64,000 nt of DNA from assembly GCA_024238995.1 (NCBI GenBank), contig JANBVL010000001.1, positions 74,059 to 138,058 on the forward strand. Direction: 5' to 3'. The notes beneath the pieces are model-generated. The model was given only the letters and a program-made list of their open reading frames with translations. It was not told the DNA's origin and did no database searches. The translations under genes were made by a program, and so were the position numbers. This document shows positions 8,871 through 62,923 of the stretch, in pieces. The stretch is from Patescibacteria group bacterium. GTDB taxonomy: Bacteria; Patescibacteriota; Minisyncoccia; Minisyncoccales; JANBVM01. The number at the start of each line of letters is the position of its first letter. The first letter of the stretch is position 1.

Positions 8871-8968
8871 AATATAATTTTATTTCTTTTAGTTAATCTC
8901 TGCTTGGGTTTTTCGGTATACACCATCAATCTCTCTTAGTCAGAATTATTCTTATTAATTAAAATGAA

Positions 8969-47668: not shown

Positions 47669-48026
47669 TTTTCAAGTTTTTGAATAAAAAAACAGCCTTT
47701 AATTATTAGGTTGTTTTTTAATATTCTAATTTTATTCCTAATTTGTCTGCAATTTGTTTTATCCATTTTTCATGACGATTCACTTTATATGATAAAATAA
47801 GCATTTCTTAAAAATAAGCATCAGCTCTTTTCGCATAAGCATCAACAGAAATTTGAAGCTCTGAAAAACTGTTTAACATTTCTTCTTTAAAAGACAAAAA
47901 ATCTTCTTTGGTGGCAAAGACTTCTTTATTAGCTTCAATTATTCTCTGTATATCTTTATCAGTAAGCATATTAATTTTCCTCTACTCATTTTTATTATAA
48001 CTTGTAAAGTAATCGTGTCAAACTTT

Positions 48027-48557
48027 TTACTTTTCAATTCCAAATTCCATTGATTTTTTAATTTGAATCATTTCTAAAGGATCAACATCTTTTAAAGAAT
48101 TGCCTTTAAACTCTTGAATCACTTTAATTCCTTCAATGTCAATATCAACACGGCTCCTTGAAGCTAATATTAAATTGGGTTCTCTTATTTCACCCTCAGC
48201 AGGGCCTTTAGTTATAAAGCATTTTCTTGCATCCATAATAATTAAGTCAGGATGAATTAATTTGTTTAACTCAGCTATTTTTTCCTGAAGATTTTTCAAA
48301 TGAAGCCTGACGCGCTCAATTGGCTTCATAAAACCAATAGATAATTTTAAAGCTCCGGTAAATTGAGCATATGAATGAGTTTTTAAATTAGGTAAAAGTA
48401 TCAACTTGTCAGCTCTTTCTAAAAATTCAGTTACTGAAACTGTCTTTAGAAATTTACCATTGGGAACTTGTTTTTTAATCCATTTCCTTTCATCAAAATT
48501 ATATATTCTTGGAGGTATTTCTATTTTCTCCAAATCAAAAACACCAAGCTTTTCCAT
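48027..48557 (-). pseudogene. DUF362 gene, C-terminal fragment (split by element insertion)
   Basis: LILLPNLKTHSYAQFTGALKLSIGFMKPIERVRLH is the DUF362 core. The apparent ATG abuts the recombinase stop (1-nt overlap). The N-terminal fragment is at 62660-62923. Confidence 0.8.
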
Positions 48558-50149
48558 TACTTTACGAGTATTGAGGCGTAGTCAAAGGTTGGTATAGGTA
48601 GCTTCATTAGTTCCTCTTTTCTCTTTGTTGAGAGCTTGGAAATTGAAATATAACCAGTTATCATTATCCTTCCTGTATCAGAATTGTAAGTGATTGTTTT
48701 TACAATACTCTTAAGCAGTTTTTTAATCTGTTCAGGCTTTAATATATTCAACTGAACTTTGGTCAGACTGGCAAACTCTTTTAAGCTGTTGATTATATCC
48801 TGCTTACTGGTTGCTTGAGATAACCTTACTTCAATCCCTTTTAAATCTTTCTTGATTTCCCTTTCAATCAAAGTATAGTTCTCTATCTTTGCCTCAAATT
48901 CTTCTATGCTTATAAAATCTTTATCCCAAAGTCGCCATACCTCACTCTTCTTTTTCTTTGTAATGGCTTGGTGCTTTAATAGGTCTTGTTTTAAATCACC
49001 TAACGATTGCTTTTCTTTGTCCCCTTCTTTTAACCGAAATATGTATTTGATAAGGATTTTAGGATTCTGTAATGCCTCTTTGATTTTGCCCCAGATATAA
49101 TCTTCAATAAACTCCTTCTTTATCATTCTAGAATTACATTTAAAAACCTCTGGAAAACTCTTGGGCTTTGAACTGCATACATAATAGGAATACTTATTAT
49201 GATGGCAGATACCAACCATTCTTGAGCCACACTTTTCACACCTCATTAAGCCACTCAAAAGATAAGTGTTCTTTGTTTTACCATAGAGCTTAAAATTCTT
49301 TTTTCTCAACTCCTGAACTTTATCAAATGTTTCTCTGTCAATTATGGCAGGGACTTTAACCATCAACCAATCTTTTCTGTTATTATTCACTTTGCTTGAT
49401 TTGACTTTTCTATTAAATTTCACTCTCTTGTTCTTTGGTTCAGAACTTTTGGTTTTATTGTAATACCAATTACCAATGTAGGTTTCACTCTTTAGAACTC
49501 TAGCAATTCCCTGTGGTCTCCAAATCTTATTATCCCCATAACGTATTTTTTTCAAGTGAAATGCTTTAGTTGTTCCAGTAATGGTTTGGTGTTCAAGATA
49601 AAGATTGAAGATAAGTTTTACAATCTTTGCTTCTTCAGGTTCTATCTTTAACTGCCAATCCCCCTTCTTGTTTTTAATGAACCTATAACCATAAGTTGCA
49701 CAACTCCTGATAAGCTTCCCATTTTTTACTTTGTGCAGTTTCCCTCTGCGACTTCTTTCTATGAATTGCCTTTTTTCGTGTTCAGCTAACAAGCTCTCAA
49801 TATCAGTTAAAAGTTTGTTTTCTTCTGTTAGCACTCGGTCTTTAAAGACCACTTCAATTCCTCGCTTCTCTAATTCTTTTAACACTATGAGTTGGTTAAG
49901 ATGGTCTCTGCTCAACCTATCGGCAGAATGAACATAAAGAGCTTCAAACAAACCTTCTTTAGCGTCATCTCTTAACTTGTCTAGAGAGGGTCTTGCCAAA
50001 GTTCCACCACTCCAACCATTATCAATATATTCTTTAACTATTTCAAAGTCTTTACAGATTTCCTTTAATACTGCCAACTGACTTTCAATAGTCCTTTCGT
50101 CTTTTTGTCTTTGGGTGCTAACCCTAACGTAGATTGCTACTTTTTTCAT
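48557..50149 (-). CDS. large serine recombinase (integrase)
   Basis: The resolvase catalytic N-terminus VAIYVRVSTQRQ carries the Ser nucleophile context. A recombinase domain, a zinc ribbon (CEKCGSRMVG...YYVCS) and a long coiled-coil C-terminus follow. Length is 530 aa. Confidence 0.92.
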   Translation of the reverse strand: MKKVAIYVRVSTQRQKDERTIESQLAVLKEICKDFEIVKEYIDNGWSGGTLARPSLDKLRDDAKEGLFEALYVHSADRLSRDHLNQLIVLKELEKRGIEVVFKDRVLTEENKLLTDIESLLAEHEKRQFIERSRRGKLHKVKNGKLIRSCATYGYRFIKNKKGDWQLKIEPEEAKIVKLIFNLYLEHQTITGTTKAFHLKKIRYGDNKIWRPQGIARVLKSETYIGNWYYNKTKSSEPKNKRVKFNRKVKSSKVNNNRKDWLMVKVPAIIDRETFDKVQELRKKNFKLYGKTKNTYLLSGLMRCEKCGSRMVGICHHNKYSYYVCSSKPKSFPEVFKCNSRMIKKEFIEDYIWGKIKEALQNPKILIKYIFRLKEGDKEKQSLGDLKQDLLKHQAITKKKKSEVWRLWDKDFISIEEFEAKIENYTLIEREIKKDLKGIEVRLSQATSKQDIINSLKEFASLTKVQLNILKPEQIKKLLKSIVKTITYNSDTGRIMITGYISISKLSTKRKEELMKLPIPTFDYASILVK

Positions 50150-50285
50150 AATTCTTTTTTTGCTTATTTTTTTTAGATTTTAAAATATCACTTACAAATT
50201 GTGTAAATTCTTCTTTATGATTAGGATTCGGCTCAAACTTTATAATCAGTTTAGTTTGTTTCTTTCTTTTCTGTCTTTTTGCCAT
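50124..50285 (-). CDS. small basic ORF (53 aa) overlapping the recombinase start; KFEPNP family
   Basis: My translation is MAKRQKRKKQTKLIIKFEPNPNHKEEFTQFVSDILKSKKNKQKKNYEKSSNLR. The first roughly 35 aa parallel ORF 60593-60784. Confidence 0.4.
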   Translation of the reverse strand: MAKRQKRKKQTKLIIKFEPNPNHKEEFTQFVSDILKSKKNKQKKNYEKSSNLR

Positions 50286-50299
50286 AATTTTGTTAAGGT

Positions 50300-50354
50300 T
50301 TAGAGATTTCAGAAATGGTCGCCCAAAACTGAAACCTCTAAATCTGCGACCATT
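50300..50354. promoter_or_regulatory. two interleaved inverted repeats plus GGTCGCCCAAAACTGAA motif
   Basis: IR-a is ttagagatttcag (50300-12) against ctgaaacctctaa (50329-41), 12/13 matched. IR-b is aatggtcgc (50314-22) against gcgaccatt (50346-54), 9/9 matched. The arms interleave, so the two structures are mutually exclusive. Confidence 0.5.
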
Positions 50355-50385
50355 ATTTTAATTATCTATGCCAACCTTTTAATTA

Positions 50386-50940
50386 TTATATGTCTTTTTT
50401 AATTGCTTTAACACACAAATGCCCACCTAACATTCTCAAACTTGGCAAATATCTTTTATTAAGTTTATCGCTTGTTATTTCAACCTTAAATCCTTTTAAT
50501 AATCTCTCAATGGCATTTGGAGTATAAAAAAGTTTGTGGTCTTCATCTCCTATGCTGTCTTCTCTTTTTAGTAAAAATCTCAAAATTCTATGAAGAGCAT
50601 AAGGATTAGGAGTAGTTAGAATCAATAATCCATTCGTTTTTAAAACTCTTTTCGCTTCTGATATAAAAGATTGTGGAGAATATGTATGTTCTAATAACTC
50701 TGCCATTATAATTGTATCAAAGGTTTCATCTTTAAAAGGTAAGTCATCGGCATTTCCTATTACTTGATTCTTTAAATTTAATTTCTTGGCTAATCTTTTA
50801 TTATTATCTAATCCAATTATTTGTGGAAACATAACTTGAAGTTCTTTAAATAGTTTTCCATCTCCTCCTAAATTGCCTATGTCTAAAATTGATTGACCAA
50901 CAATACTTTCTTTTATGAAACTGATTCGTGTTCCTAACAT
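50386..50940 (-). CDS. class I SAM-dependent methyltransferase
   Basis: ILDIGNLGGDG is motif I, and DTIIMAELLEH and NGLLILTTPN follow in a Methyltransf_11-like layout. No DPPY/NPPY DNA-MTase motif is present. Confidence 0.78.
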   Translation of the reverse strand: MLGTRISFIKESIVGQSILDIGNLGGDGKLFKELQVMFPQIIGLDNNKRLAKKLNLKNQVIGNADDLPFKDETFDTIIMAELLEHTYSPQSFISEAKRVLKTNGLLILTTPNPYALHRILRFLLKREDSIGDEDHKLFYTPNAIERLLKGFKVEITSDKLNKRYLPSLRMLGGHLCVKAIKKDI

Positions 50941-50944
50941 TATT

Positions 50945-51115
50945 TTAATAATCTGTTATGGTTATTTTCCTTCTGCCCTTTCCCTTATCCCATCTATCAA
51001 GAATGTTTTTGATTTTACCAACATAGTCCTTGATTTTTACAAGGCGTTTTTGGTCTCTTTTAAACTGGAGATATATCACTAAGTCTATTGTGATTTTTCG
51101 TCTTTTATTTGTCAT
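50945..51115 (-). CDS. possible small basic protein (56 aa)
   Basis: Below the track cutoff. My translation is MTNKRRKITIDLVIYLQFKRDQKRLVKIKDYVGKIKNILDRWDKGKGRRKITITDY. It lies 4 nt upstream of the methyltransferase start. Confidence 0.3.
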   Translation of the reverse strand: MTNKRRKITIDLVIYLQFKRDQKRLVKIKDYVGKIKNILDRWDKGKGRRKITITDY

Positions 51116-51271
51116 ATACTAGTATTATGACTTTTTCATAAACTAATGTCAAGTATTTTTTTAATTGATTCTATTTTTATGGCTCTTTTTTGAAAATACT
51201 ACAATTTGATACCCCCTCAAACGCCCACTTGACACCCCTAAGAACTTAATATAGATTAAACTATTAAAAAA

Positions 51272-51289
51272 GGTCGTCCCAAAACTGAG
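51272..51289. promoter_or_regulatory. second copy of GGTCG(C/T)CCCAAAACTGA motif in the divergent control region
   Basis: ggtcgtcccaaaactgag compared with ggtcgcccaaaactgaa at 50317-50333. Confidence 0.4.
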
Positions 51290-51333
51290 GGATTATATCA
51301 GTATATAGAAAGCAATTAAAATAGGAAGAAAAT

Positions 51334-52302
51334 ATGAACAAAATAGAGATAAAAAACTTACTCAAAAAAAGTCCTATTGCAATGATTGTAGCTGGATTGT
51401 TAGGAGCTGGAATAGTTTCAGCAATGGTTTTAGCTGTCTATACTACAATGCTAGGAGTGGGTAATGTAGAACAAGCAGTCATATTTGGAAATGGAGATGT
51501 TGAAAAAACATATACTATTGGAAGCTCTAATGCAATTGCTGGAAACACCTATACCCAAGATTATAATTTGAAGAACCAATCAGAAACCACAGCACCGATT
51601 AAGTTTATCACTACACAATGTATAGTTGGTGGTGGAAATTGTAATACTCCAGAACACATTGAAGAAGGTGTAAAAACTTCTTACTGGAGTGCTGTAGAGT
51701 TAGAGAATAAAAACCCTGATTGGAATATTATAGATGATAATACAAGAGCAACTTTGACTTATGAATTATTATCTCCGACCTTCAATTATGAATTTGAAGC
51801 TACAGGACTAGATGTTAATGAAAACTATTCCTTGATTTACTACGCAGATAAACCTGAAAGGTTTGAAAATTGGGGTGGTAATAATCCAGGAGTATTGATT
51901 GCTGAATTTATAACTGATGATGAGGGAAACATTTCTGAAGAAGGAAACAAAAATCTTCAAATGAATTTGCCTACTTCACCAGATTGGAATGCTACTGCCG
52001 AAGCAAATTATTGCGATAGCGATAGTTATGATTTATGCAGAGGAGCAAAGATTTGGTTAGTTCCATCATCTAGTTATAATGATATAACAAAGGAACTTAA
52101 TGGTTGGAATCCAGATACTTACTTATTTGAAACAGACCTGATTACTTATGACGATACTGACACAGATGGAGTGGCGTTATATTTAGGAACAGGAATGCTG
52201 AATTTCTTTGTTAAGAATGAATTTGCAGTCAATCTTGCACCTGGCGAATATAAGGTAAAGACAGAAGTAATCCCAGTAGCAGAGCTAATAGCAGAATTGT
52301 AA
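51334..52302 (+). CDS. N-terminally anchored extracellular protein (322 aa), unknown family
   Basis: TM/signal PIAMIVAGLLGAGIVSAMVLAVY, then an acidic, Asn/Thr-rich beta-type sequence. First gene of a 4-gene plus-strand operon. Confidence 0.6.
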   Translation: MNKIEIKNLLKKSPIAMIVAGLLGAGIVSAMVLAVYTTMLGVGNVEQAVIFGNGDVEKTYTIGSSNAIAGNTYTQDYNLKNQSETTAPIKFITTQCIVGGGNCNTPEHIEEGVKTSYWSAVELENKNPDWNIIDDNTRATLTYELLSPTFNYEFEATGLDVNENYSLIYYADKPERFENWGGNNPGVLIAEFITDDEGNISEEGNKNLQMNLPTSPDWNATAEANYCDSDSYDLCRGAKIWLVPSSSYNDITKELNGWNPDTYLFETDLITYDDTDTDGVALYLGTGMLNFFVKNEFAVNLAPGEYKVKTEVIPVAELIAEL

Positions 52303-52309
52303 AGAAAAC

Positions 52310-52370
52310 CTGATAGCTATACAAGGAATAGCTATCAGAGGTAGGTTTATTTCTTTGAAGTAAATCTACC
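52310..52370 (+). promoter_or_regulatory. two consecutive intercistronic hairpins
   Basis: ctgatagcta-tacaaggaa-tagctatcag is a perfect 10-bp stem. It is followed by ggtaggtttat...gtaaatctacc (imperfect), ending 8 nt before ATG 52378. Confidence 0.55.
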
Positions 52371-52377
52371 CCTGATT

Positions 52378-53232
52378 ATGAACAAAATATCAAAAAGTTT
52401 AATAGTTCTATTTTTAGCTTTTCTTTTTGGAAGTAGTTTTGGGATTTTTTCTATCCAAGCTCAAAATGATAAACTTATTTTAGAACTATCTTCTAAAGAA
52501 TGCGATATTCAATATAGTGGTGAGAGTTGCATTATTGAACTGAAACTTACTAATAATACTGATAAAATTCTTAATGGAGAAACATCTTTACATATAGATT
52601 ATAAAGGTATTTGTGGAGATGGTTTTTTTGATGGAGAAGGAATTAAAGCTCAATTTTCTATTACAGATAATAGTTGGTTAGACTTCTTGGGTTGGAAAGA
52701 TGGAACAACAGCAGTTTCAGGTTTTGAAATCGTTAAAGGCGAAACTCAATCAAAACTTAAGATAAAGACTGCTTCAAATCTTTGCCCTGGAGAATATACT
52801 TTCATTCTTGAATTAAAAGGAACTACTGCTGAAGAAGAATACACAAGCATTCCACTAGTAATGATACAAATAGGTGATGCGATAATTCTTCCTCAACCTT
52901 TTTTAGAAATTCCAGAAATTGACACTACTGATACTGAAAAGATAGTTGCCGTCTCAGGAGAAGAAGAAATAACTACTTTAACTAAAAAGGATTCTGAAAC
53001 TGAATTTATTGGAGAAAAAGAGGAAGAAAAGGAGAAAGGAGAGGAAAAAGTTGTTATTGAAGGGATTCAAAAAGGTTTAGTTTCAATGATAGCGTCTATA
53101 GGTATGATTTGGGGAGAAATCAGTAAATCTGCTTTTCTAACAATTATTGTGATTTTATGTTTAATGGGTTTAGTTCTTATCGGTATCAAAGAGTGGAGAC
53201 TATTTCAGAAAAAAAAAGAAGAAAGAAAATAG
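52378..53232 (+). CDS. type I membrane protein with Ig/CARDB-like ectodomain (284 aa)
   Basis: Signal peptide LIVLFLAFLFGSSFGIFSIQA, then ESCIIELKLTNNTDKILNGETSLHIDY. An acidic linker follows, then C-terminal TM FLTIIVILCLMGLVLIGI and a KKKEERK tail. Confidence 0.6.
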   Translation: MNKISKSLIVLFLAFLFGSSFGIFSIQAQNDKLILELSSKECDIQYSGESCIIELKLTNNTDKILNGETSLHIDYKGICGDGFFDGEGIKAQFSITDNSWLDFLGWKDGTTAVSGFEIVKGETQSKLKIKTASNLCPGEYTFILELKGTTAEEEYTSIPLVMIQIGDAIILPQPFLEIPEIDTTDTEKIVAVSGEEEITTLTKKDSETEFIGEKEEEKEKGEEKVVIEGIQKGLVSMIASIGMIWGEISKSAFLTIIVILCLMGLVLIGIKEWRLFQKKKEERK

Positions 53233-53289
53233 CTTGTTGGTCGGCTAAGCTATAAAGTAAATAATTAAATAAAAAACCAATGGAATAAA

Positions 53290-53799
53290 ATGTTTAAAAA
53301 ACTTACAGCTTTATTAGTGTTATCTGCTCTGCTTTTAGTTAGTGGAGCTTTTACATTTGCTAGTAATGAGGAAGCCATTATCGGCTCTATAACTCCTAAA
53401 GTCTTAAATGTTTCCATTAGCACAGATGGGGAAATTGACTGGGGACTTATGGATTTGGGGCAAGTTAAAGACACAATGACTTTAATAGATACACAGACCA
53501 TCACAAATATTGGTTCAGTTTCATTTACAATCAGTTTGAAAGTTTCGGATTCAATTCCTTCAAATTGGCAATACATAAATGCTATACCAAGTTTGACAAA
53601 CGAATTCAGTCAGGAGTGGGCTTTGAATTCTTCTGGGTGGACGTTCTTCAATGCTGATAATTCTTACTTGGCAAGTGGTATGACATTAGACCCTTCAACT
53701 TCAGTAAGTATGGATTTAAGATTCTATATGCCAGTAGTTCTCAGCTCAGGAGTCGCTCCACAAACTTTTCTGACATCAGTTTTGGCAGTTGCTTTGTAA
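53290..53799 (+). CDS. secreted beta-rich protein (169 aa), possibly pilin-like
   Basis: Signal peptide LTALLVLSALLLVSGAFTFA. ITPKVLNVSISTDGEIDWGLMDLGQ...ITNIGSVSFTISLKV is reminiscent of the first strands of 41812-42429. Confidence 0.6.
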   Translation: MFKKLTALLVLSALLLVSGAFTFASNEEAIIGSITPKVLNVSISTDGEIDWGLMDLGQVKDTMTLIDTQTITNIGSVSFTISLKVSDSIPSNWQYINAIPSLTNEFSQEWALNSSGWTFFNADNSYLASGMTLDPSTSVSMDLRFYMPVVLSSGVAPQTFLTSVLAVAL

Positions 53800-53815
53800 G
53801 GTTTGGATTTGTTGA

Positions 53816-53838
53816 GGTGGGTATTTTCTCTACCCACC
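53816..53838 (+). promoter_or_regulatory. intercistronic hairpin just before start codon
   Basis: ggtgggta-ttttctc-tacccacc is a perfect 8-bp stem ending 4 nt before ATG 53843. The right arm CTACCC resembles the one before ATG 52378. Confidence 0.5.
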
Positions 53839-53842
53839 AATT

Positions 53843-54388
53843 ATGAAACTAAAACTTATAACAACAATTATTTTATTTTCATTGATAAGCTCTAGTGCTT
53901 CAAGCATTGGAATCTATCCTGTCGCTTTAAAGTTTGATGATGAGCTTTTAATGGGCAAACGATATAAAAATTCACAAATTACTATTATCAATACAAATGA
54001 TGAGGCAGGTTATTTTAAAGTCGGTGTAGCCAATTTAACAAAAGAGAATTTTGATAAGCTGAATTCTGATTGGATAAAAATTAAACCTGAAAAGTTCTAT
54101 CTAGAGGTAGGTTCTAGTCAAACGATTACTTTATCATTAAAAATTCCTCCCAAAACAAGATTGATATATTTTCAAGTTTATGGCGTTATAGAAACTTTTT
54201 CTGTTGAAGAAGTTGAATCAGGAGTTATGGGTGTGGGAGTTGCTGTGGGTTCTAAACTATCTTTTAAGGTTTCTAAAAAGAATGTCCCAAAATGGAAATT
54301 GCTCTGGTGGAACATTACAGACAGATTAAGATATTTTATGGCTTGGGGTGGTAATTTTATGCCTTTCAGTTTTACTCTTAAAAGATAA
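53843..54388 (+). CDS. secreted Ig-like (DUF916 / chaperone-like) protein (181 aa)
   Basis: Signal peptide, then IGIYPVALKFDDELLMGKRYKNSQITIINTNDEAGYF and WIKIKPEKFYLEVGSSQTITLSLKIPPKT. These parallel LTVSPAKVEF...ITLINSG and WIEVSPSEVHL...FTIRIPENA of 40704-41768. Confidence 0.55.
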   Translation: MKLKLITTIILFSLISSSASSIGIYPVALKFDDELLMGKRYKNSQITIINTNDEAGYFKVGVANLTKENFDKLNSDWIKIKPEKFYLEVGSSQTITLSLKIPPKTRLIYFQVYGVIETFSVEEVESGVMGVGVAVGSKLSFKVSKKNVPKWKLLWWNITDRLRYFMAWGGNFMPFSFTLKR

Positions 54389-54470
54389 GAAGTTGAGGTT
54401 TGATACCATTAAATACCCTGTATGATGGTTCTTTACTTGTAAAAGGACTTTAAATGCGTCTAACAGCATT

Positions 54471-54686
54471 TTAAACTAGGTTCTCCCTGTAATCAGCTAG
54501 ATTCTTCCTAACAAACCAAACTGCGTTTTTCTCCTCATCAGAAAGTTTTACTCCCCTCTTGCGATTCATAAGCCAAAGTGCTGTGTTAATAATGGTTCTC
54601 TTTTTAACAGGCACTCCAAAGAAATCTTTTGTCGCTTCAATGATTTGTTTTTGCTTTTCAGATTGTTTTGTGGGTAGAGTTCTCAT
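54471..54686 (-). CDS. hypothetical protein (71 aa)
   Basis: Begins 2 nt after the terL stop. No family recognised. Confidence 0.5.
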   Translation of the reverse strand: MRTLPTKQSEKQKQIIEATKDFFGVPVKKRTIINTALWLMNRKRGVKLSDEEKNAVWFVRKNLADYRENLV

Positions 54687-54688
54687 AG

Positions 54689-56233
54689 TTATTCATAAGC
54701 ATTGCCTCTGCTCCTTCTGTCCAGTATTGCTTGAACTTTCTTTTGGCTTTTTACTTTATCTCCTATTTTTTCAAAAGTAATTTTCTTTTCTTTGTAATTT
54801 TCAAATTGTTCAAATAAAGATTTTCTGGAAGTGATTATGTCTTTATCTTCCATTTCCCAGAATCCTAACAGAGTTGAAATAACATCATCATCGTGAAAGG
54901 AACGTTCTGCTCCTGCTCCTGACTGCCGTGCTGAATCATTCCAGACAAACGTTTTAAATTCTTCACAAGTTTGCTTATCATAGATACTAACTAAATCTTT
55001 TCTTAATAAGTCCTGAAAATTACTAATCAGGGCTTGTTTAGTTTGATAGCTTGTTTTCCAGCCGAGCTTCTGGGTTTCTTTTCTTCCCCAAGAGCTAGTA
55101 TCAAAAGTTGTTCTTCTATAAATGTTTAGATCACTAATACCCAATAAAAGAGCCTGACCACTAGCATTTACTTCTGGAATTATTAGGGGAGTTAAACTGC
55201 TCCTTTTGTTATATTTTTCATAAATGAATCTTGTCTTTTCTATTAAGGCAGGAATAGGAATCTTGCCATTAAACTTTGCAACTTTCTGACCATCAGAAGA
55301 AATAACACTTATACTACTTGGGTCAATGACACCTTCACTTCCATCAACCCCAATCTGATAAAACTTATTCATTGGTTGCTCCCAGATTTCAAATCCTTCT
55401 TCAACAGCAATCGGTTCTTTCACCATTGCTTCAAACTTTTTTATGTATTCTGTGGCAAAAACATTGTTCTGCAACAATAGGGATATGTCCCAATTTCCCT
55501 TAACATACCTTTGAATGTAATTCTCATCGTGTTGCAACTGGTCTTGCAAATAGTCATCTGGCAAATAAGGATTATCTAGCATTGAGAATTGAAAAGTTTC
55601 AAAATCAGTTCTCTTATTTACATTCTGTATAAATTCAGGATAAACCCAAAAGTTAGCAGGATTCATATTTAAAAAAGCACATCTGATTGGAGAAGTTGTC
55701 CTCCTCAATCTTCCACACAAGGTTAGAAAAACTGATTTTTCAATTTCTTCTGCTTGGTCTAGGGCAAATCCTGACAGGTTCATTCCTTTCAAAGACTGGT
55801 TGGCTTTTCTGATGTCTGACAGGCTTCCGCTCATTAAAGCGTCTAAACCAAAAAATATAATTTTACTGCCATTAAAAAACTCAACAATGCCTGACTTAAC
55901 CCTGTGCTTATACCATTTGGCATTTGGAATTAACTCCCACAGCAAAGGCAAAATTGTTTTTTCAAGGTCTGCAACATAACGTCTGCCCAACAGAAATTCA
56001 GAATTAGGAAAGAACCAACAAAGCAGAAGCATTTTACTCAACATTGCTAGAGTTTTACCAGAACCTAAACCTCCATACAAAATCTGAAATCTTGCTTTGC
56101 TATTCAGGAACTTAATCTGCTCTGGCAGAAATTTATATTTCTTTTTTCCATACTGCCACTCTTTGACTTGATAACCCTTAAGCCATTCTTCACCCAGTTT
56201 ATTAAATTGTTTTGTCAGTTCTTGTGTATTCAT
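54689..56233 (-). CDS. terL: phage terminase large subunit
   Basis: Walker A is YGGLGSGKT and Walker B-like is GFALDQAEE. The C-terminal RNase H-like nuclease has IGVDGSEG and FHDDDVISTLLG. Confidence 0.8.
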   Translation of the reverse strand: MNTQELTKQFNKLGEEWLKGYQVKEWQYGKKKYKFLPEQIKFLNSKARFQILYGGLGSGKTLAMLSKMLLLCWFFPNSEFLLGRRYVADLEKTILPLLWELIPNAKWYKHRVKSGIVEFFNGSKIIFFGLDALMSGSLSDIRKANQSLKGMNLSGFALDQAEEIEKSVFLTLCGRLRRTTSPIRCAFLNMNPANFWVYPEFIQNVNKRTDFETFQFSMLDNPYLPDDYLQDQLQHDENYIQRYVKGNWDISLLLQNNVFATEYIKKFEAMVKEPIAVEEGFEIWEQPMNKFYQIGVDGSEGVIDPSSISVISSDGQKVAKFNGKIPIPALIEKTRFIYEKYNKRSSLTPLIIPEVNASGQALLLGISDLNIYRRTTFDTSSWGRKETQKLGWKTSYQTKQALISNFQDLLRKDLVSIYDKQTCEEFKTFVWNDSARQSGAGAERSFHDDDVISTLLGFWEMEDKDIITSRKSLFEQFENYKEKKITFEKIGDKVKSQKKVQAILDRRSRGNAYE

Positions 56234-56682
56234 AAGTCTTTAAAATTAAATCTGTGTGGGTTGGGTATATATTATAATGTAAGGAATCAAGTGGTTGGTC
56301 TCCCCCCCCTTATGTTCGGTTAATGTTCGGTTGTTGATAGGTCTCACAATATATCTTGTGCGACGTTATTTGTTCTTAAATCAGTATTCTTAATAGGTTC
56401 GTTATTCTTGACTGGCTCTAAACCTTGCTAGGAGCTGATTCTATGCCTCTAATATGAAGCGAGGAATTAACCTTGCCCTAGTTTATTAAGCTGAATATAT
56501 CCTTATCTAACCTCTTTGTGCCTGGGATTGTGGTGGGAAAGAAAGAGCGTGTGTATATGGTGCAGATACCATTCAGATATAACCATTAAGAGTTAATACC
56601 ATTCAATAACTATTCATTAGTATCTTTCTTTTCTTTGCGATTTGTTAAGACCAGTTCTTTGTGTTCTATCCTTATCTGTTTT
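56234..56682. other. 449-bp non-coding spacer between terS-like gene and terL with several short direct repeats
   Basis: No ORF on the coding strand. atgttcggtt occurs twice in tandem (56312-56332). gtgtgtatat is at 56549-58. ataccattca occurs twice, 30 bp apart (56566-75 and 56596-605), with ataaccatta between them. Confidence 0.7.
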
Positions 56683-57168
56683 CTATGTTTCTTCTTTATT
56701 CTTTTTCTTTGTGCCATTCTTTTGTTCTATCACTTCTCCTTGTTCTATCTGCTCCTTTTCTTTTGGAGCTGACATAGTTATATTAAGAGAGCCTAAATCT
56801 ATCAGAGCCTTATCTTCTCTAGGATAATGCGACAGAACTTTATTGTATTCTTGGACAGCTTGAAGTTTAGCTCTCGTATCTCCACTTTCAATTAGCCCTT
56901 TTAATATACTAGCGACTTCAGTAGGACTTATTAACGACCTCAAAATATCAGCAAACTTCTTGCCCTCATCTAACTTAATCAGTTCCACCAAATCTTTTTG
57001 TTTCTTTAACTCTTTTTGATATAGTTCGTTCTTGCCCAATTTAAAACCAATCTGATAAGCATTGGCTCTATCTTTTGCGTTATAGCATTGTAAAACAGCG
57101 TCATTTCTATCAATGCCCCTTGCCTCTAAATCAAGGACACATTTTTGTTTTAGTGTTAAATTTCTCAT
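56683..57168 (-). CDS. terminase small subunit-like HTH protein
   Basis: LTLKQKCVLDLEARGIDRNDAVLQCYNAKDRANAYQIGFKLGKN resembles the Terminase_2 N-terminal HTH (ltpkq..F...y...n...Aa..AGY). It is positioned upstream of terL. Confidence 0.55.
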   Translation of the reverse strand: MRNLTLKQKCVLDLEARGIDRNDAVLQCYNAKDRANAYQIGFKLGKNELYQKELKKQKDLVELIKLDEGKKFADILRSLISPTEVASILKGLIESGDTRAKLQAVQEYNKVLSHYPREDKALIDLGSLNITMSAPKEKEQIEQGEVIEQKNGTKKKNKEET

Positions 57169-57232
57169 TATTTTACTTTTTCAGGCTTCTAGGTTGCGTT
57201 CTAACAAGAGTAAAACAGATAGTTGATAGTTA

Positions 57233-57745
57233 TTATTCATACTGACTTCTAGCTCTTGGTTTAGGTTTCTGTCCTCTGTCTTTCTCTATTGCTTTCTCTC
57301 TTTCCCTTTCATCAACAGCAATCCTTTTAGCTATGGTTTCTTTCTTTTCTTTCTCTTTGGCTAACCTTTCATTCTCAAAAATAACAGATTCTTTTAATGA
57401 TTTCTCTTGGTTTTTTACTGCCTGTTCTCGCAATGGCATTAAAGTAATTCTTGAGTTAAGTTTCTTTTCCAACTTTGAAATTTTGGCTTTCTCCCGATTG
57501 TAAGCTATAAATTCTTTTCCATATTTATCCCTTTCTCTTTGTGTAATTTCTCCAACCTCTTTTGCAAATGGGTCTCTCTTGGATTTAATCATTTCCATTA
57601 ACTCTTTAGCGTCTTTTGATAATTGCCTTCTTCTTGCCAGAATAATTTGTTTCATTCTAGGAATTGAAACTTTAGATTCATTAACTTTTCCTTTCAATCT
57701 CTGAAAGTTCTTATATTTACTTTTTAATATCTCCTCTTGGTTCAT
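57233..57745 (-). CDS. Lys/Glu-rich coiled-coil protein (170 aa)
   Basis: Clean ORF of low complexity. No family recognised. Confidence 0.5.
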   Translation of the reverse strand: MNQEEILKSKYKNFQRLKGKVNESKVSIPRMKQIILARRRQLSKDAKELMEMIKSKRDPFAKEVGEITQRERDKYGKEFIAYNREKAKISKLEKKLNSRITLMPLREQAVKNQEKSLKESVIFENERLAKEKEKKETIAKRIAVDEREREKAIEKDRGQKPKPRARSQYE

Positions 57746-57763
57746 AATTTATTGTTTGATTAG

Positions 57764-57985
57764 TTATTTACCCTGCCATTCAGAAAAGGATTGATGTTTC
57801 TTTTTAGGAGGAGTTGAATAGTCAGGGACATAAGGGATAGAAGAAAACTCTTTGGCTTTTGTCTCTTCAAAAGACTGAACCTTAGGTTGTTTCCCCCACC
57901 CCTCCTTTTTAGCAACTTTATCTATTGCTTCATTAAGTTCCCTTAACTTATCCTCTTGCCACTTTTTAAACTCATCAGGGGTCAT
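57764..57985 (-). CDS. hypothetical protein (73 aa)
   Basis: It shares DEFKK and a C-terminal SF-x-x-W motif with 58165-58539. Confidence 0.5.
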   Translation of the reverse strand: MTPDEFKKWQEDKLRELNEAIDKVAKKEGWGKQPKVQSFEETKAKEFSSIPYVPDYSTPPKKKHQSFSEWQGK

Positions 57986-58141
57986 TTAGTTATTCTTAAT
58001 TGTTTCTCTTTTTTGCTTACCTGCAATATCCTTGTTCATTTTTTGAACTTGTTTTTTTGGTAAGCTAGGGTGGAAGTTCTCAACTTTCTTTCGGCTTAAC
58101 ATTTTGCTCCTTTTTGGCGATTTTGATTTGTTTCCTCGCAT
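57986..58141 (-). CDS. possible small basic protein (51 aa)
   Basis: Below the track cutoff. My translation is MRGNKSKSPKRSKMLSRKKVENFHPSLPKKQVQKMNKDIAGKQKRETIKNN. Its stop directly abuts the ATG of 57764-57985. Confidence 0.35.
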   Translation of the reverse strand: MRGNKSKSPKRSKMLSRKKVENFHPSLPKKQVQKMNKDIAGKQKRETIKNN

Positions 58142-58164
58142 AGTTTTTTATTTATTTTTAGTTA

Positions 58165-58539
58165 TTATTTTTTCTTCAACCTTTTAGCTCTCCAACTTTC
58201 AAAAGAGGGGTATTTCTTTGGAGTTTCTTGAACAGAAGCTCCTCCCTCAATTTCATTTTGGGCAATCACTCCCTTTTTAAACTCATCAAAAGGTAAGATT
58301 GTTTCTAATTCTGTTCCAGACTTCTCTAATCTCATTCCCTCAATCCCTTGTTTAACAAAATCACTTTCAGCTGTTTCAGAAAGAGTTTCCCCTCTTCCTT
58401 TTGCTACTACCTTAATTTCTTTAATTTCCTCATCAGAATAACCCTCTAAAACAAGAGCTTCTTCCTCTTGAGCCATTGTTTTTTCTTTTGTTTCTTTATT
58501 TTCTTCTGACATAATCTTTTTTGGCTGGGGAAGAGCCAA
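58165..58539 (-). CDS. acidic hypothetical protein (124 aa)
   Basis: PFDEFKKG and the C-terminal PSFESWRAKRLKKK parallel 57764-57985. Confidence 0.5.
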   Translation of the reverse strand: MALPQPKKIMSEENKETKEKTMAQEEEALVLEGYSDEEIKEIKVVAKGRGETLSETAESDFVKQGIEGMRLEKSGTELETILPFDEFKKGVIAQNEIEGGASVQETPKKYPSFESWRAKRLKKK

Positions 58540-58664
58540 GCGACTGACGAATGACTCTGACCCAGCGTTATTTTAATCTTTTACTTATTTTTCTTTGAAA
58601 ATGACCTTTATATCTGCGATCTAACAAGTTTTTTAATTAAAGTTGATATTTTATACTTACAAAT

Positions 58665-58754
58665 ATATAGGGGGGAAGGAGTGTATGCACACACCAAGAT
58701 ATAGATTTGAGGTGTATGCACCAAACGTGTGTGTATACAACCCTCTCCCCCTAT
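58665..58754. promoter_or_regulatory. ori-like iteron cluster bracketed by G-rich/C-rich inverted arms
   Basis: atataggggggaagg ... gtgtatgcac (58681-90) ... gtgtatgcac (58712-21) ... gtgtgtatac (58729-38) ... ccctctccccctat. An AT-rich tract lies immediately upstream (58600-58664). The cluster is directly 3' of the P-loop replication gene. Confidence 0.5.
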
Positions 58755-60079
58755 TGTTTTGACTCTACTTTTTCTTGAATTGGTATAATCAACATCTTCC
58801 TTCTGTCCATTGAGTCAGGCTCTTGGGTAATAAGACCAGCAGTAGACCACATAGGCACTATTTCTCGCCTTAATTGTTCATCAGATATAGGTCTTCCATA
58901 ACATCTAAAATGTTCATTCATTATTTCTTGCCTAGTTATTCCAACAATACCTTCAATCCACAGGGGTAAAACAATTTTATTGAAAAGGTCAAAAATGTAA
59001 GGTGGCAAATTGAGTTCTTGGCTTTGGGAGATTACTTCCCATATTTTTAAAGCATTCTTAAAATCTTCTTTCTTGCAAGTAATAACCTTATTTTCATTTA
59101 TTCCCCTGTGCCAGAGATTCAATAAAGCAAATGCTTTGGTCAAAGAAATCAATCTGGCAATATCTCTACTATGTCTTGGTTTTAAAAACTTCTTATGTCT
59201 TGATAAAAACTCCTTTTCTATTGTTTCTTTAAGCTGTTCAGAAATCTCAATACCCTTAACCCCAGTTTGTCTAATAGACTCAATCCTTTCTTTTAATTCA
59301 GTCCTTTTTGGGTTTGCTTCTAACTCTTTTCTATAAGTTTTATAGTTTGATTCTTTTTTTATTCTTTCAATTATTGATTCCCTAATTTTCTCTTGGGAGA
59401 TTTCAGGGCTTAAGAGAAGAAATCTTGTCGCTTCTTGCTCATCAATCTTTAATCCAGCAGAGCAGAAAATAACTGATGGGTAGCCCCTAACAACAATGTT
59501 TTTGGTTCGCAGTTTTCTTTTACTTCGGTCTGTAATCTTCACAAGAATTTCCTTCTTGTCGTGGGATAAAACAGGTCTCAAATGCTGAAGTAATAAAGTG
59601 TGTGGTTGGTCTAAAAATACTAAAATTTTCCTTTCAAGATTTATGACATACTGCCCATCTTTATTTTTTTTGGCTTGGTCGTGAAAAAAAGCTGTTGGGC
59701 TACAATACCCTACCTCAATCAAATCTTCTTTTGGAAATAATTTTCCAACTTCCAGAGGAATATAACTTTTTCCTGTGGAGCTTGGAGCATTGAAACTAAT
59801 GTTAAATTGAGATTTCTCTGTAAAAGCTGATAACTGGCAAAGGAAAGTTGCTAGTTTATTTTCTTGGTCTGATTTGATTGTTAAGCCCAAAACATTAAGC
59901 AATTCTTCCACCGATAAATAATCAAAAGTTTTAGGTGCTTCTTTCTTTTCTTCTTCTTTTGAAACAAATTGTTTCTCTATTTTTTTTCTTAAATCTTCAA
60001 ATACCATTACCCTTTCAAGCTGTTTGTCAGAGGCAAGTAGGAAAGGGTTTAAACTTAACCACTCACCCCCAACAAACAA
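58751..60079 (-). CDS. P-loop NTPase, putative replication initiator/helicase
   Basis: Walker A is NAPSSTGKSY and Walker B-like is ILVFLDQPH. The gene follows the primase zinc-finger gene. No closer family recognised. Confidence 0.5.
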   Translation of the reverse strand: MFVGGEWLSLNPFLLASDKQLERVMVFEDLRKKIEKQFVSKEEEKKEAPKTFDYLSVEELLNVLGLTIKSDQENKLATFLCQLSAFTEKSQFNISFNAPSSTGKSYIPLEVGKLFPKEDLIEVGYCSPTAFFHDQAKKNKDGQYVINLERKILVFLDQPHTLLLQHLRPVLSHDKKEILVKITDRSKRKLRTKNIVVRGYPSVIFCSAGLKIDEQEATRFLLLSPEISQEKIRESIIERIKKESNYKTYRKELEANPKRTELKERIESIRQTGVKGIEISEQLKETIEKEFLSRHKKFLKPRHSRDIARLISLTKAFALLNLWHRGINENKVITCKKEDFKNALKIWEVISQSQELNLPPYIFDLFNKIVLPLWIEGIVGITRQEIMNEHFRCYGRPISDEQLRREIVPMWSTAGLITQEPDSMDRRKMLIIPIQEKVESKQ

Positions 60080-60087
60080 CTTTTAAG

Positions 60088-60663
60088 TTAGTTATTTAAC
60101 ATTTTAACTGCTGACACAAAATCTAAACCTCGTAATTTCATTGTTAGGTCAATGATGTCTCCTGATTCTTTGCAAGAAAAACAATGGTAAAATTCATTTT
60201 TTAAATAAAGAGATGGTCTCTTGTCTGGGTGGAAAGGACATAAAGCCCAGATTTTATTTCTTATCTCAAGGAATTTAGAAAAAGGTTGCTGTTTAGCTCT
60301 TTGAATATCCTCGTTAGTTATTTTTCCTTTTCTAAATCTTGGAGGATTTAGCAACCAACTCAATTCTTTATGCTCTTTTATCAGCCTATCTAACTTATCT
60401 CCTGCCCAGACTTTAATTATTTGCTGTTGAAACCATTTCTTAAAGCCCTTAAGCAAAAGGGTTCTTTTTAAACTGATTTTAATTTGTAATGTTAAAGTTT
60501 TAATCTCTTTTTCTAACTTAATTAACCTTTCTTCTAAATACCTTTTTGCCTCTGGAAAAATCTCTAATAGTTGCCTATCAGTAAAAAACTCCTTATTTTC
60601 TAGATAACTTTTTTCCCACTCTTGAATTAGATTCCTTAAAATTGTTTCCTCGCTTATCAGCAT
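60088..60663 (-). CDS. CHC2 (DnaG-type) zinc-finger protein without TOPRIM domain
   Basis: CPFHPDKRPSLYLKNEFYHCFSCKESGDIIDL matches the zf-CHC2 pattern CPFH.EKTPSF.V......CFGCG..GD.I.F. Confidence 0.7.
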   Translation of the reverse strand: MLISEETILRNLIQEWEKSYLENKEFFTDRQLLEIFPEAKRYLEERLIKLEKEIKTLTLQIKISLKRTLLLKGFKKWFQQQIIKVWAGDKLDRLIKEHKELSWLLNPPRFRKGKITNEDIQRAKQQPFSKFLEIRNKIWALCPFHPDKRPSLYLKNEFYHCFSCKESGDIIDLTMKLRGLDFVSAVKMLNN

Positions 60664-60784
60664 TTTGATATTTCTTAAAATTTTCTCTTAAATCACTACC
60701 CAAAAAACTAAAAACCTTTTCCATCATTTGAGGATTTGGTTCAAATTTGTAATTAAGTTTGAAAGGTTTTTTAGTTTTCTTCAT
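60593..60784 (-). CDS. small basic ORF (63 aa) overlapping the zinc-finger gene start; KFEPNP family
   Basis: MKKTKKPFKLNYKFEPNPQMMEKVFSFLGSDL parallels the mini-ORF at 50124-50285. The DNA is also similar (aggatttggttcaaatttgtaattaagttt against aggattcggctcaaactttataatcagttt). Confidence 0.45.
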   Translation of the reverse strand: MKKTKKPFKLNYKFEPNPQMMEKVFSFLGSDLRENFKKYQNADKRGNNFKESNSRVGKKLSRK

Positions 60785-60909
60785 TGTTGGCAGTAAAGAA
60801 CATTCTTGCTAGTTTCACCTTACCACGCACTTTTGAAGAATTTGGCAAATCCTAGACAATCAAAAAAAACACTCATTTTAAGAGTGTTTTGTATCAAATC
60901 AAGTCTTAA

Positions 60910-62121
60910 CTAATCTTTAAATGGTGGGATATTACCCTCTAACCAAAACTGGTAAGAGGATTTTTCTTTTTTGATTCTCTTTAATCTTGGCAATATCATT
61001 CTTTCTTTACCAGTCTTTCTTTTAATAAACTTTTGATATTCTTTTTCCATCTTATTTTGGTATTCTTGGTCATCATAATACCTAACTAAATCACCCTTTA
61101 GTTCAACATACTTTATTAGCGTTAATGGTGGTCTTAAATATCTTTTTAAAGTTTTAGAGGATTGAGTTTTTGGTTTTACTGCGTTTAACCAATCTTCCCA
61201 GTCTTTTTCTGCTATCTCAATAAGATTTAAGGCTGGATATTTTTCTGCAAGATAGCGAAGTCTTGGATTAATGTTAAGATTGATTTGTTTTTCTGTTGAA
61301 GGAGTCCTTTCACTTTCATAAAAATTCCTTTTAAAAAAAGCATCTATTACTTCATCAGGCGACGCTTTTTCTATCTGTTTATAAATCTTTTTAAGATACC
61401 TTTTTTGCTTTTCATTTGTTGGATAAATCGGCAATAAAGTTGTTGGTTCAAGAATTGAGATTGGTATTTCAAGTTCTATATCATAAAGAAAATTATTGAA
61501 AACCCAAACAAAACCTGCTTGTTCATTCAAGGGGCTGAAACCTTTAACAATTTGCTTAATATCTTCTATCATTGGTTTCCAATCCCAACGTGCTTGTTTA
61601 AGAACCCATTTTGAGAGTTCAGGAGTTAGGTAAAGATTTCTCTCCTCATTTTTAATTTTAATCTTTGAATCATCTTTTTGTTTAAGTGGTCGGTAGAGCT
61701 TATATTTTTCTCTAAATAACTTTTTTCTTTGCTGATATTCTTTATCATTAACTACCATTATAGACAAGTTTTGGTTTCTTCTTTCATAATCTTTTAGGTC
61801 AAAGTCTTTAGATGAGTAATCAAAAATAGGAATTTCAATAATTGGTTTTATTTCAACTTTTCTCTTATTAACAGAAAGACCACCTTTAACCATTTTCTTT
61901 AACCTTACTACCCCCCACATTCCTTTTCTTTCTTTCCAAAGCCCTCTTAAACGTTTCTTGTTTTTCCTATTTTTAATCGCTTTCTCAAATTCTTCTTTTG
62001 TGGGTAGTCTTTTAAACCTAACTTCTTGCCATAATTTTTTTACTATCGCTTCAAATTCTTCAAAGACTTTTACAAAAGAAATGTCTATTTTTTTAATTGT
62101 GTTTTTTTTCTGTTTTGCCAT
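60910..62121 (-). CDS. Lys-rich hypothetical protein (403 aa)
   Basis: Long clean ORF. No family recognised. Confidence 0.55.
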   Translation of the reverse strand: MAKQKKNTIKKIDISFVKVFEEFEAIVKKLWQEVRFKRLPTKEEFEKAIKNRKNKKRLRGLWKERKGMWGVVRLKKMVKGGLSVNKRKVEIKPIIEIPIFDYSSKDFDLKDYERRNQNLSIMVVNDKEYQQRKKLFREKYKLYRPLKQKDDSKIKIKNEERNLYLTPELSKWVLKQARWDWKPMIEDIKQIVKGFSPLNEQAGFVWVFNNFLYDIELEIPISILEPTTLLPIYPTNEKQKRYLKKIYKQIEKASPDEVIDAFFKRNFYESERTPSTEKQINLNINPRLRYLAEKYPALNLIEIAEKDWEDWLNAVKPKTQSSKTLKRYLRPPLTLIKYVELKGDLVRYYDDQEYQNKMEKEYQKFIKRKTGKERMILPRLKRIKKEKSSYQFWLEGNIPPFKD

Positions 62122-62135
62122 TGGTTAAAGGGCTT

Positions 62136-62180
62136 TTCGTGAGGCAAAAACCAATGGAAATTTTAATCTTGCCCCACGAA
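62136..62180. promoter_or_regulatory. 12-bp inverted repeat (operator or hairpin)
   Basis: ttcgtgaggcaa-21 nt-ttgccccacgaa, 11/12 complementary, between two element genes. Confidence 0.45.
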
Positions 62181-62206
62181 TAACCCTGATTTATTTTTAT
62201 TCTTGC

Positions 62207-62422
62207 TTAAGGTCTTAAATTTTCTTTTCCCCTCAATTCTTCTGCTTTTTTAATAAGGTATTTTGCCAACTCACTAACAAACTCATTTATGTCTTTACTC
62301 TTCTCTGCAATTTCTTCTATTTCATTTCTTTTTTGCCAAAACAACTTGTGTGTTGCTTGACTAGTAGCAAGAAAATTTAAAGCTTGTTCTAACAATACAA
62401 ATGCACCTGCATTTAATTTCAT
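62207..62422 (-). CDS. hypothetical helical protein (71 aa), first gene at the element's right end
   Basis: Clean ORF. No family recognised. Confidence 0.5.
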   Translation of the reverse strand: MKLNAGAFVLLEQALNFLATSQATHKLFWQKRNEIEEIAEKSKDINEFVSELAKYLIKKAEELRGKENLRP

Positions 62423-62487
62423 AGATTTAAGTTAATTTTTATTTAATAAATTCCGACCTTGAAAAGTTATTTTTATTCAAACCAAAA

Positions 62488-62570
62488 AGGGACAACCCTG
62501 CTGGATACCACCTTATTTAAGGGCAGAACAGAATTGTCCCTCTTTACCCTTAAATATAAATTGGTATCCA
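62488..62570. promoter_or_regulatory. nested inverted-repeat structure near the right end of the element
   Basis: Pairs are agggacaa/ttgtccct, ggatacca (62503-10)/tggtatcc (62562-69), and ccttatttaaggg/cccttaaata. Confidence 0.5.
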
Positions 62571-62659
62571 CTTTTCATCTTACTTGTTTCAAACAAAAAA
62601 TCAAAGCTTTTTAAACTTTGATTTTAATGTTAAATTGTAATGAAATGTAATCTAAGCCT

Positions 62660-62923
62660 TTAACTTCCTCTCTTTAAACTCATGGTAGAAGAATCACCTA
62701 TCATTACAATTTTAGCGCCACACTCATAAATCAATTCAACAACAGCTCTTAAAAATCCAATGTCAGTTGAAGCCGGGCTTGGGTCAGCCGTATTAAAATT
62801 AGGTTTTAGCAAAACTGTTTCTCCCCTATTTATGAATTTTTTAAAACCACCAATTTCATTTACAGCTTTTAAAACTGACTCTTTTAAATTACTTTCAACT
62901 TTTACCTTGCTGACTTTATTCAT
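62660..62923 (-). pseudogene. DUF362 gene, N-terminal fragment
   Basis: GETVLLKPNFNTADPSPASTDIGFLRAVVELIYECGAKIVMIGDSS is the DUF362 N-terminal pattern. The reading frame ends 4 codons into foreign sequence (..SLKRGS*). Confidence 0.8.

Follow-up and report, generated by a model that had tools for sequence, protein, structure and literature searches.

A 14-kb integrative element of a Patescibacteria genome encodes both terminase subunits and no recognized head genes: a candidate phage satellite

A 14,102-bp element interrupts a DUF362 gene in the genome of a Patescibacteria group bacterium (NCBI GenBank assembly GCA_024238995.1). The stretch analyzed, hereafter called the window, comprises 64,000 nucleotides of contig JANBVL010000001.1 (positions 74,059 to 138,058 of the forward strand), and the element occupies window positions 48573-62672 plus a 2-bp AA core. 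It encodes a large serine recombinase, a replication module, and the complete small and large terminase subunits (TerS and TerL). An earlier reading of the window (the original prediction) had left the choice between a new type of satellite and an element with structural genes too divergent to recognize. Comparative evidence from seven related elements, all lacking portal and capsid genes, favors the first. We consider it fairly probable that the element is an integrative phage satellite that carries its own terminase and hijacks the procapsids of a helper phage, on which we infer it to depend. It probably belongs to a previously undescribed family whose members encode complete TerS and TerL, in some cases a scaffold homolog, and no portal, capsid, or tail genes. 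The broader proposal is an even bet: that these elements are a new class of satellites, the first proposed for the Candidate Phyla Radiation (CPR)/Patescibacteria, which parasitize ∼40-kb CPR phages by means of an orthogonal TerS and TerL, whose own recognition repeats adjoin a core that the phages share, and a scaffold-derived capsid-size factor, with neither capsid nor portal genes of their own.

The boundaries of the element were established by comparison with intact copies of the interrupted gene. As originally proposed, DUF362 is split: The open reading frame (ORF) at 62660-62923 on the minus strand (-) corresponds to positions 1-44 of the Pfam DUF362 profile, and that at 48027-48557 (-) corresponds to positions 68-196. 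A search with the joined protein returned >1000 homologs, the best of which, from Paceibacteria-type Patescibacteria, are 264-268 aa long with identities of up to 86-90%. The intact genes share the UppS-DUF362-DUF4015 synteny with the window flanks. Because uninterrupted DUF362 genes are found in syntenic relatives, the empty site sought by the original prediction exists. DUF362 and DUF4015 overlap in intact relatives; in the window they are separated by a 358-nt gap (47669-48026) that contains a 53-aa ORF (47808-47969).

Intact homologs read ...IGDSSTMSLNTRKVMEKLGVFDLEK... over the junction and share the conserved motif STMSLNTRKVMEKLGV. In the reading frame of DUF362, L-N-T-R-K-V-M-E-K is already present on the attR side. 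Since attR encodes NTR and intact homologs keep these residues, the crossover is placed at the AA dinucleotide at 48571-48572 (attR) and 62673-62674 (attL). This is 13 bp further inward than the AA/AAAG junction first reconstructed (...SLKVMEK...), which was rejected because it loses the NTR residues. Mapped on intact homologs, the N-terminal host part thus runs through the attL core (62673-62923, -), and the C-terminal part includes the attR core (48027-48572, -), with the frame (L)NTRKVMEKLGV.... The rebuilt attB is ...ACCATGAGTTTA-AA-TACTCGTAAAGTAATGG..., and its translation, MIGDSSTMSLNTRKVMEKLGVFDLEKI, is identical to the consensus of the intact homologs. The corresponding attP is ...GACTACGCCTC-AA-GAGAGGAAGTTAAAGG.... 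The sequence spanning attP is GACTACGCCTCAAGAGAGGAAGTTAAAGG and that of the empty attB is ACCATGAGTTTAAATACTCGTAAAGTAATGG. As is typical of elements mobilized by large serine recombinases, attL and attR share a 2-bp core and their joining restores the target gene. We conclude that a large serine recombinase inserted a 14,102-bp circle at the AA core within DUF362.

The recombinase itself lies at the left junction, where the original prediction had placed it (530 aa; 48557-50149, -). Its Resolvase (8e-30), Recombinase (4e-20), and Zn_ribbon_recom (6e-15) matches all exceed the Pfam cutoffs, giving it the domain composition of a large serine recombinase. The ORF crosses attR, such that its last five codons and stop codon are host-derived, and the C-terminus of the protein would differ in the excised form. 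Recombinase orthologs terminate all seven related elements.

The packaging module links the element to phages. The 514-aa protein encoded at 54689-56233 (-) had been named a terminase, and it passes hidden Markov models of both Terminase_3 (5.9e-13) and phrog_2 (3e-29, residues 31-465). Its ATPase and nuclease domains are intact, with Walker A GSGKT, DQxEE, and the nuclease aspartates (D297 and D448/D449) invariant in an alignment of 20 sequences. The terS-like gene of the original prediction (orf161; 56683-57168, -) is the candidate for TerS. It lies directly upstream of terL in all elements, its family profile matches 83 loci, and phrog_51 "terminase small subunit" is matched by three of the seven family members, with a best E of 7e-5. 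A structure model of TerS was uninformative (predicted local distance difference test [pLDDT] 54.5), and Foldseek returned no match to it at E ≤0.001.

A third phage-related protein is encoded at 58165-58539 (-). This 124-aa protein (orf124) is a truncated homolog of a phage protein whose gene lies between those for the portal and the major capsid protein. Residues 11-72 align to positions 70-131 of 187 (E 8e-11) in a profile built from 77 phage-only sequences. The homolog is full-length in one related element (L014), where it directly follows terL, and marginal in another (L007). The phage proteins are 170-210 aa long with an acidic N-terminus, and one of them weakly matches phrog_206 "head scaffolding" (0.003). 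Because of their position, size, acidic N-terminus, and this one weak match, we call the family a putative scaffold.

Head and tail genes were searched for at several levels of sensitivity. No ORF of the element matches portal, capsid, protease, or tail models of Pfam or PHROG. Portal and capsid profiles built for this family, run unfiltered at maximum sensitivity, score ≤5 bits on any element protein. The remote-homology check suggested by the original prediction gave the same result: HHalign comparison of the five largest unassigned window proteins with the family portal and capsid profiles yields probabilities of ≤0.4%. The largest of the candidates is a 403-aa ORFan (60910-62121, -), the first large gene of the leftward operon. 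It reaches ≤0.2% in the same comparison, matches only itself among 5.8 billion proteins, and is not similar to the first genes of the sister elements. A single-sequence AlphaFold model of this protein (pLDDT 36) was unusable and therefore uninformative as a structural check. Searches of PDB sequences with the 403-aa protein, the P-loop protein described below, and the TerS profile returned nothing useful. Because the 403-aa ORFan is the only ORF lacking an assigned function that is big enough for a capsid or portal protein, no full head-tail module can be hidden in the element. Of the genes that together mark a Caudoviricetes prophage (capsid, portal, TerL, and tail) only TerL is present, and the coding capacity is insufficient for the rest. 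The originally claimed absence of head genes therefore holds for portal, capsid, protease, and tail, but the element does contain something capsid-related, its truncated scaffold-position homolog. None of the three outcomes named beforehand as fatal to the original prediction (no intact DUF362 gene, a full head-tail module, failure of the 514-aa protein against terminase models) was encountered.

TerL has hundreds of relatives in metagenomes. An identical TerL is encoded on a 144.6-kb contig and on Logan contig L185 (run SRR8799001). We gathered 180 terL loci from assemblies, GTDB genomes, JGI metagenomes, and IMG/VR (a scan of genome contigs yielded 8 loci). Profiles were built locally for TerS, the recombinase, the portal, the capsid protein, and the product of the gene lying between portal and capsid, and these were run against the loci. 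The 135 loci in which ≥2.5 kb follows terL were considered informative. An SU10-like portal gene immediately follows terL in 123 of the 135, usually followed by the gene for the 170-210-aa acidic protein and then by a Phage_capsid_4/HK97-type capsid gene. The other 12 loci lack a portal gene, and all 12 also lack a capsid gene. Among the 135 loci, the large serine recombinase is confined to these 12.

The 12 portal-less loci represent seven distinct elements: the window copy, L005/6/20, L007, L022/100/101, L102, L103/104, and L014. They span 12.5-14.5 kb and are inserted in DUF362, comM-like, or comEC genes. A comM-like Mg-chelatase gene is interrupted in L005 (∼13.1 kb) and L100 (∼14.2 kb), and comEC is interrupted in L102 (∼13.0 kb) and L014 (∼13.6 kb; position 32/33 of the Competence profile). 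L007 (12.7 kb) and L103 (12.5 kb) are contigs that hold only the element; the possibility that L007 is a circular contig was rejected, since it has no terminal repeat. The common gene order begins with a large first gene (sigma70_r4-like in L005, L102, and L014), followed by small ORFs, the replication pair, terS, a gap of 450-850 nt, and terL. Further small ORFs come next, then small ORFs on the opposite strand that include an HTH_17 gene, a small resolvase, and the large recombinase at attR. The window copy deviates from this order. Its replication module is not the one found in the others, neither the small resolvase nor the HTH_17 gene is present, and a methyltransferase and secreted-protein cargo are added.

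The closest relatives of the TerL in the window are the TerLs of these seven elements. In a neighbor-joining tree, the TerLs of the satellites share one larger clade with those of portal-bearing phages (L012/L021 and L034/L035), and identity to the nearest true phage TerL is 53%. Among contigs of the related phages, the largest have lengths clustering at 40-44 kb, which is ∼3× the size of the element.

The gap between terS and terL contains a conserved cis element. In the window it is ∼75 nt long (56251-56333, -) and consists of two ACCGAACAT direct repeats, G8, TATATA, and CCCACACAGA. Its conserved block (56251-56309, -) ends 18-20 nt before the terL ATG. In all seven elements this block comprises 6-10 G residues, a sequence like (T)A(A/G)GTC(G/A)AGTC, ∼15 nt, TATATATA, and (G)CCCnnCCACACAGAC. 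The core pattern can be written as G-run ... TATATATA ... CCACACAGAC, and as G-run/CACACAGA. When both strands of 1.88 Mb were searched with a strict pattern, ∼30 distinct sites were found, and all are upstream of terL and on the terL strand, in satellites and phages. The cis element precedes terL in all seven satellite-like elements and in ≥30 phage loci. Other copies include L005 9590-9685, L081 9842-9904, and L153 1-58.

Just upstream of the G-run lie short direct repeats that are specific to each element: ACCGAACAT twice in the window (56312-56333), ACCGAACA twice in L005, ATAGAACA twice in L022, and ATAAGGC three times in L058. Variable recognition repeats beside a conserved cut core are the usual logic of cos and pac sites. 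The cis element is thus a candidate packaging site, in which variable repeats bound by TerS adjoin a conserved core cut by TerL, or a candidate late promoter. Its spacing is unlike that of a canonical sigma-70 promoter; phages and some satellites encode sigma70_r4-like proteins, which could read it as a late promoter. Either function would tie the satellites to the late or packaging program of the phages. The block lies ≤600 nt from the 5′ end in 18 of the 28 phage contigs that have a real 5′ contig end, and one contig starts exactly at the G-run. This enrichment is only suggestive, because poly-G may break assemblies for technical reasons. An RNA structure was rejected as an explanation for the element, since there is neither a consensus structure nor an Rfam match.

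In L100 (9370-9945; equivalent to 6284-6859 of L022/L101), the terS-terL gap contains an extra ORF of 191 aa downstream of the conserved cis element. It has a faint match to NUMOD3, a homing-endonuclease-type family, and homologs ∼3.7 kb downstream of terL in eight phage loci. The ORF resembles a mobile gene for a nuclease.

For replication the element carries a module of its own, composed of a zinc-finger protein and a helicase-like NTPase. The former (60088-60663, -) carries the DnaG-type CHC2 zinc finger that had been noted originally (Zn_ribbon_DnaG 2.7e-15, residues 137-189), has no Toprim domain, and has a homolog in L007. The latter is a P-loop NTPase (58751-60079, -) with 1414 homologs. 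In longer homologs, the matching region lies C-terminal to Prim-Pol, archaeo-eukaryotic primase (AEP) plus PriCT_1, RepB_primase, or DnaG-type zinc finger plus Toprim domains. This placement identifies the protein as the helicase-like half of primase-helicase proteins. The P-loop replication gene of the original prediction was therefore confirmed, but the iterons said to follow it are weak: At 58660-58761 there are two copies of GTGTATGCAC in a 35-nt imperfect inverted repeat. We regard this repeat as a candidate replication origin from its position beside the replication genes.

A mechanism that accommodates these features can be proposed. When a related helper phage replicates, after infection or induction, the element would excise and replicate. 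Its own TerS would bind its own repeats, and TerL would cut the conserved core. The terminase complex would then dock on the helper portal and pack satellite DNA into helper procapsids. The truncated scaffold homolog may steer assembly toward a smaller shell, fit for a genome about one-third the size of that of the helper, a relationship known from P4/P2 and SaPI/80alpha. The four secreted proteins would travel as cargo, together with the methyltransferase. Satellites are defined by travel in virions made of helper proteins and by dependence on the helper for transfer, and such travel is supported only indirectly by the phage-derived terS, terL, and scaffold homolog, by the common cis element, and by the absence of capsid genes.

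Several observations weigh against a satellite that uses a foreign procapsid. The helper phage and the induction, excision, and encapsidation steps are hypothetical, and no experimental precedent was found among satellites for a TerL that docks on a foreign portal. The original prediction had suggested searches of viromes. A terL profile recovered 80 loci from IMG/VR, but a portal is present wherever testable and none of the 80 is a satellite; a scan of the same database with the single TerL protein found nothing, and an exact search for attP found no junction there. The TerS copy of the window has no direct match, so that its assignment is indirect, and the 403-aa ORFan has no assignable fold. 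The scaffold role of the phage family is putative, resting on gene position, composition, and one weak PHROG match. In addition, orf124 is closest to one phage subclade and TerL to another, and thus no single helper lineage is indicated.

Of the alternatives, one that we judge unlikely is an integrative and replicative element that needs no helper. Such an element would be transferred by some other route, for example natural transformation, vesicles, or episymbiont cell contact, and would keep the terminase for a different use, for example processing of replication concatemers or defense against phage packaging. It is consistent with the element's own replication and integration modules and with secreted cargo that could act at the cell surface, and defenses that target or mimic terminases are known from satellites, as far as the accounts consulted describe them. 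However, terS, terL, the scaffold-position homolog, and a cis element shared with phages form a packaging set that is hard to explain otherwise, and no conjugation or other transfer genes were found in Pfam, PHROG, and NCBIfam scans.

Also improbable is a lineage of defective prophages, in which the element is the remnant of a ∼40-kb temperate phage that lost its structural module and is now passed on only by vertical inheritance or mobilized by its recombinase alone. In its favor, TerS, TerL, and the scaffold-position homolog clearly come from phages, the neighbor-joining tree nests the TerLs among those of phages with portals, and mobility in particles is a prediction. Against this stand seven independent elements that have the same 12.5-14.5-kb size and gene order, occupy three target genes, and reside in different hosts. 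Random decay would not repeatedly delete exactly the region from portal to tail while sparing terS and terL, whose product retains intact motifs, as does the recombinase. Moreover, the recombinase occurs in no related phage locus, so no full-size temperate ancestor of this form has been seen.

A tiny autonomous virus with a capsid and a portal that have diverged beyond recognition, encoded for example by the 403-aa ORFan and the secreted proteins, is very improbable: One large protein lacks a usable model and four further proteins lack a family, but TerL is about 50-60% identical to TerLs paired with a 560-aa SU10-like portal and an ∼310-aa HK97-type capsid protein, a portal so divergent that family profiles and HHalign give ≤0.4% probability is unlikely, the largest unassigned ORFs of the sister elements (191-375 aa) are not mutually homologous, the secreted proteins bear signal peptides, genes for tails or lysis are absent, and the coding capacity is too small.

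[quoted passage not shown] The window element has this layout (integrase, primase-replicase, terS, 10-15 kb, no structural genes), with a serine integrase and with the zinc-finger and helicase-like pair. In contrast, PICIs use tyrosine integrases and the TerL of the helper, whereas here there are a large serine recombinase, a full TerL that is intact in all seven elements, and a Patescibacteria host. PICIs are induced by a helper-phage protein that relieves a master repressor. In the window copy, no gene was identified as an AlpA/Stl-type regulator; HTH_17/MerR-like and sigma70_r4-like genes are present in sister elements. Scaffold-like proteins that redirect capsid size, to which CpmB offers an analogy, are encoded by some PICIs.

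Capsid-forming PICIs (cfPICIs) and the Streptomyces satellites MulchRoom and MiniFlayer resemble the element in carrying terS and terL. However, they have their own major capsid, portal, protease/scaffold, and connectors and steal only tails, whereas capsid, portal, and connectors are absent here. P4-like satellites are also integrative and replicative, about one-third the size of the presumed helper genome, and equipped with a candidate capsid-size factor. In P4 this factor is Sid, and the genomes are 11.6 (P4) versus 33.6 kb (P2); the satellite:helper ratio is ∼1:3 in both P4/P2 and SaPI/80alpha. Unlike the element, P4 has no terminase genes and uses the cos site and terminase of its helper, and no homology to P4 proteins is seen. 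Prophages and islands that split host genes by means of large serine recombinases share the recombinase gene abutting attR, the 2-bp core, and an intragenic insertion restored by excision. They are full prophages or nonviral islands, whereas this element has only the packaging part of a phage.

[quoted passage not shown] The satellites known from the literature searched have terS alone, or terL together with capsid and portal genes. No described satellite with terS and terL but without head genes was found in this literature, whose coverage was incomplete, and this absence does not prove novelty.

The remaining genes of the element are mostly cargo and small ORFs. The G+C content is ∼32% across 48.0-62.9 kb, as in the remaining window, and almost all ORFs between the DUF362 pieces are on the minus strand. 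The methyltransferase reported originally is a class-I S-adenosylmethionine-dependent enzyme (50386-50940, -; Methyltransf_11 3e-16) with a weak PADLOC match to mad2 (4e-8). The four-gene operon at 51334-54388 (+) encodes proteins of 322, 284, 169, and 181 aa. As had been claimed, these appear to be secreted or membrane-anchored, since all four begin with hydrophobic signal or anchor segments. Pfam, PHROG, NCBIfam, and PADLOC assign none of them to a family; L007 encodes a homolog of the 181-aa protein (8609-9385).

Directly after terL is a conserved 71-aa ORF (54471-54686, -; cluster C6) that is present in four elements. Another ORF of 71 aa, the first gene after attL (62207-62422, -), has no family match. 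Three ORFs at 57233-58141 (-), encoding basic, coiled-coil-like proteins of 170, 73, and 51 aa, have neither family matches nor homologs in related loci. A 53-aa basic ORF (50124-50285, -; cluster C9) overlaps the recombinase start. It is a paralog of 60593-60784 (-), which precedes the zinc-finger gene, and a homolog of L005 6809-6955. All three have a K..KFEPNP...F motif in common. The paralogous proteins may act in regulation or as recombination directionality factors.

Nested inverted repeats separate attL from the first gene of the element (62484-62570): TGGATACCA/TGGTATCCA, TTAAGGG/CCCTTAA, and GGGACAA/TTGTCCC. On the minus strand, a T-run comes after the GGGACAA/TTGTCCC pair. These repeats have no Rfam match and could constitute a leader with alternative structures, a terminator, or protein-binding sites near attP. 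Neither tRNA genes nor Rfam matches occur anywhere in the window. A 2055-aa ORF occupies its far left (1031-7198, -).

Two observations concern the target sites of the sister elements. At the left end of L005 (4507-4734), a 75-aa ORF is similar to the C-terminal residues 476-518 of the L100-type recombinase. It was rejected as the missing end of the L005 recombinase, which is complete, and may have been left behind by an element that once occupied this comM-like site. The comEC insertions of L102 and L014 are in different hosts. Integration and excision could toggle DNA-uptake genes off and on.

If the satellite interpretation is correct, these elements would represent a third strategy beside the redirection of packaging by TerS only and satellites with their own heads, namely the carriage of both terminase subunits and no head genes. 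They would also provide a natural test of the specificity of the TerL-portal contact, and would show that the TerL of a satellite can function with the portal of another element. A 2025 preprint describes it as unknown whether viruses of CPR bacteria or DPANN archaea have satellites (10.1101/2025.02.15.638363), and the elements would answer this question for CPR. They would add a third layer of nested parasitism, in which an episymbiotic bacterium is host to a phage and the phage to a satellite. The targets include competence genes (comEC and comM-like) of bacteria presumed to rely on DNA uptake, so that competence could be switched by insertion and excision. Finally, the family offers a ready set of large serine integrases with defined att sites, together with a conserved cis element, for the genetics of an uncultivated phylum.

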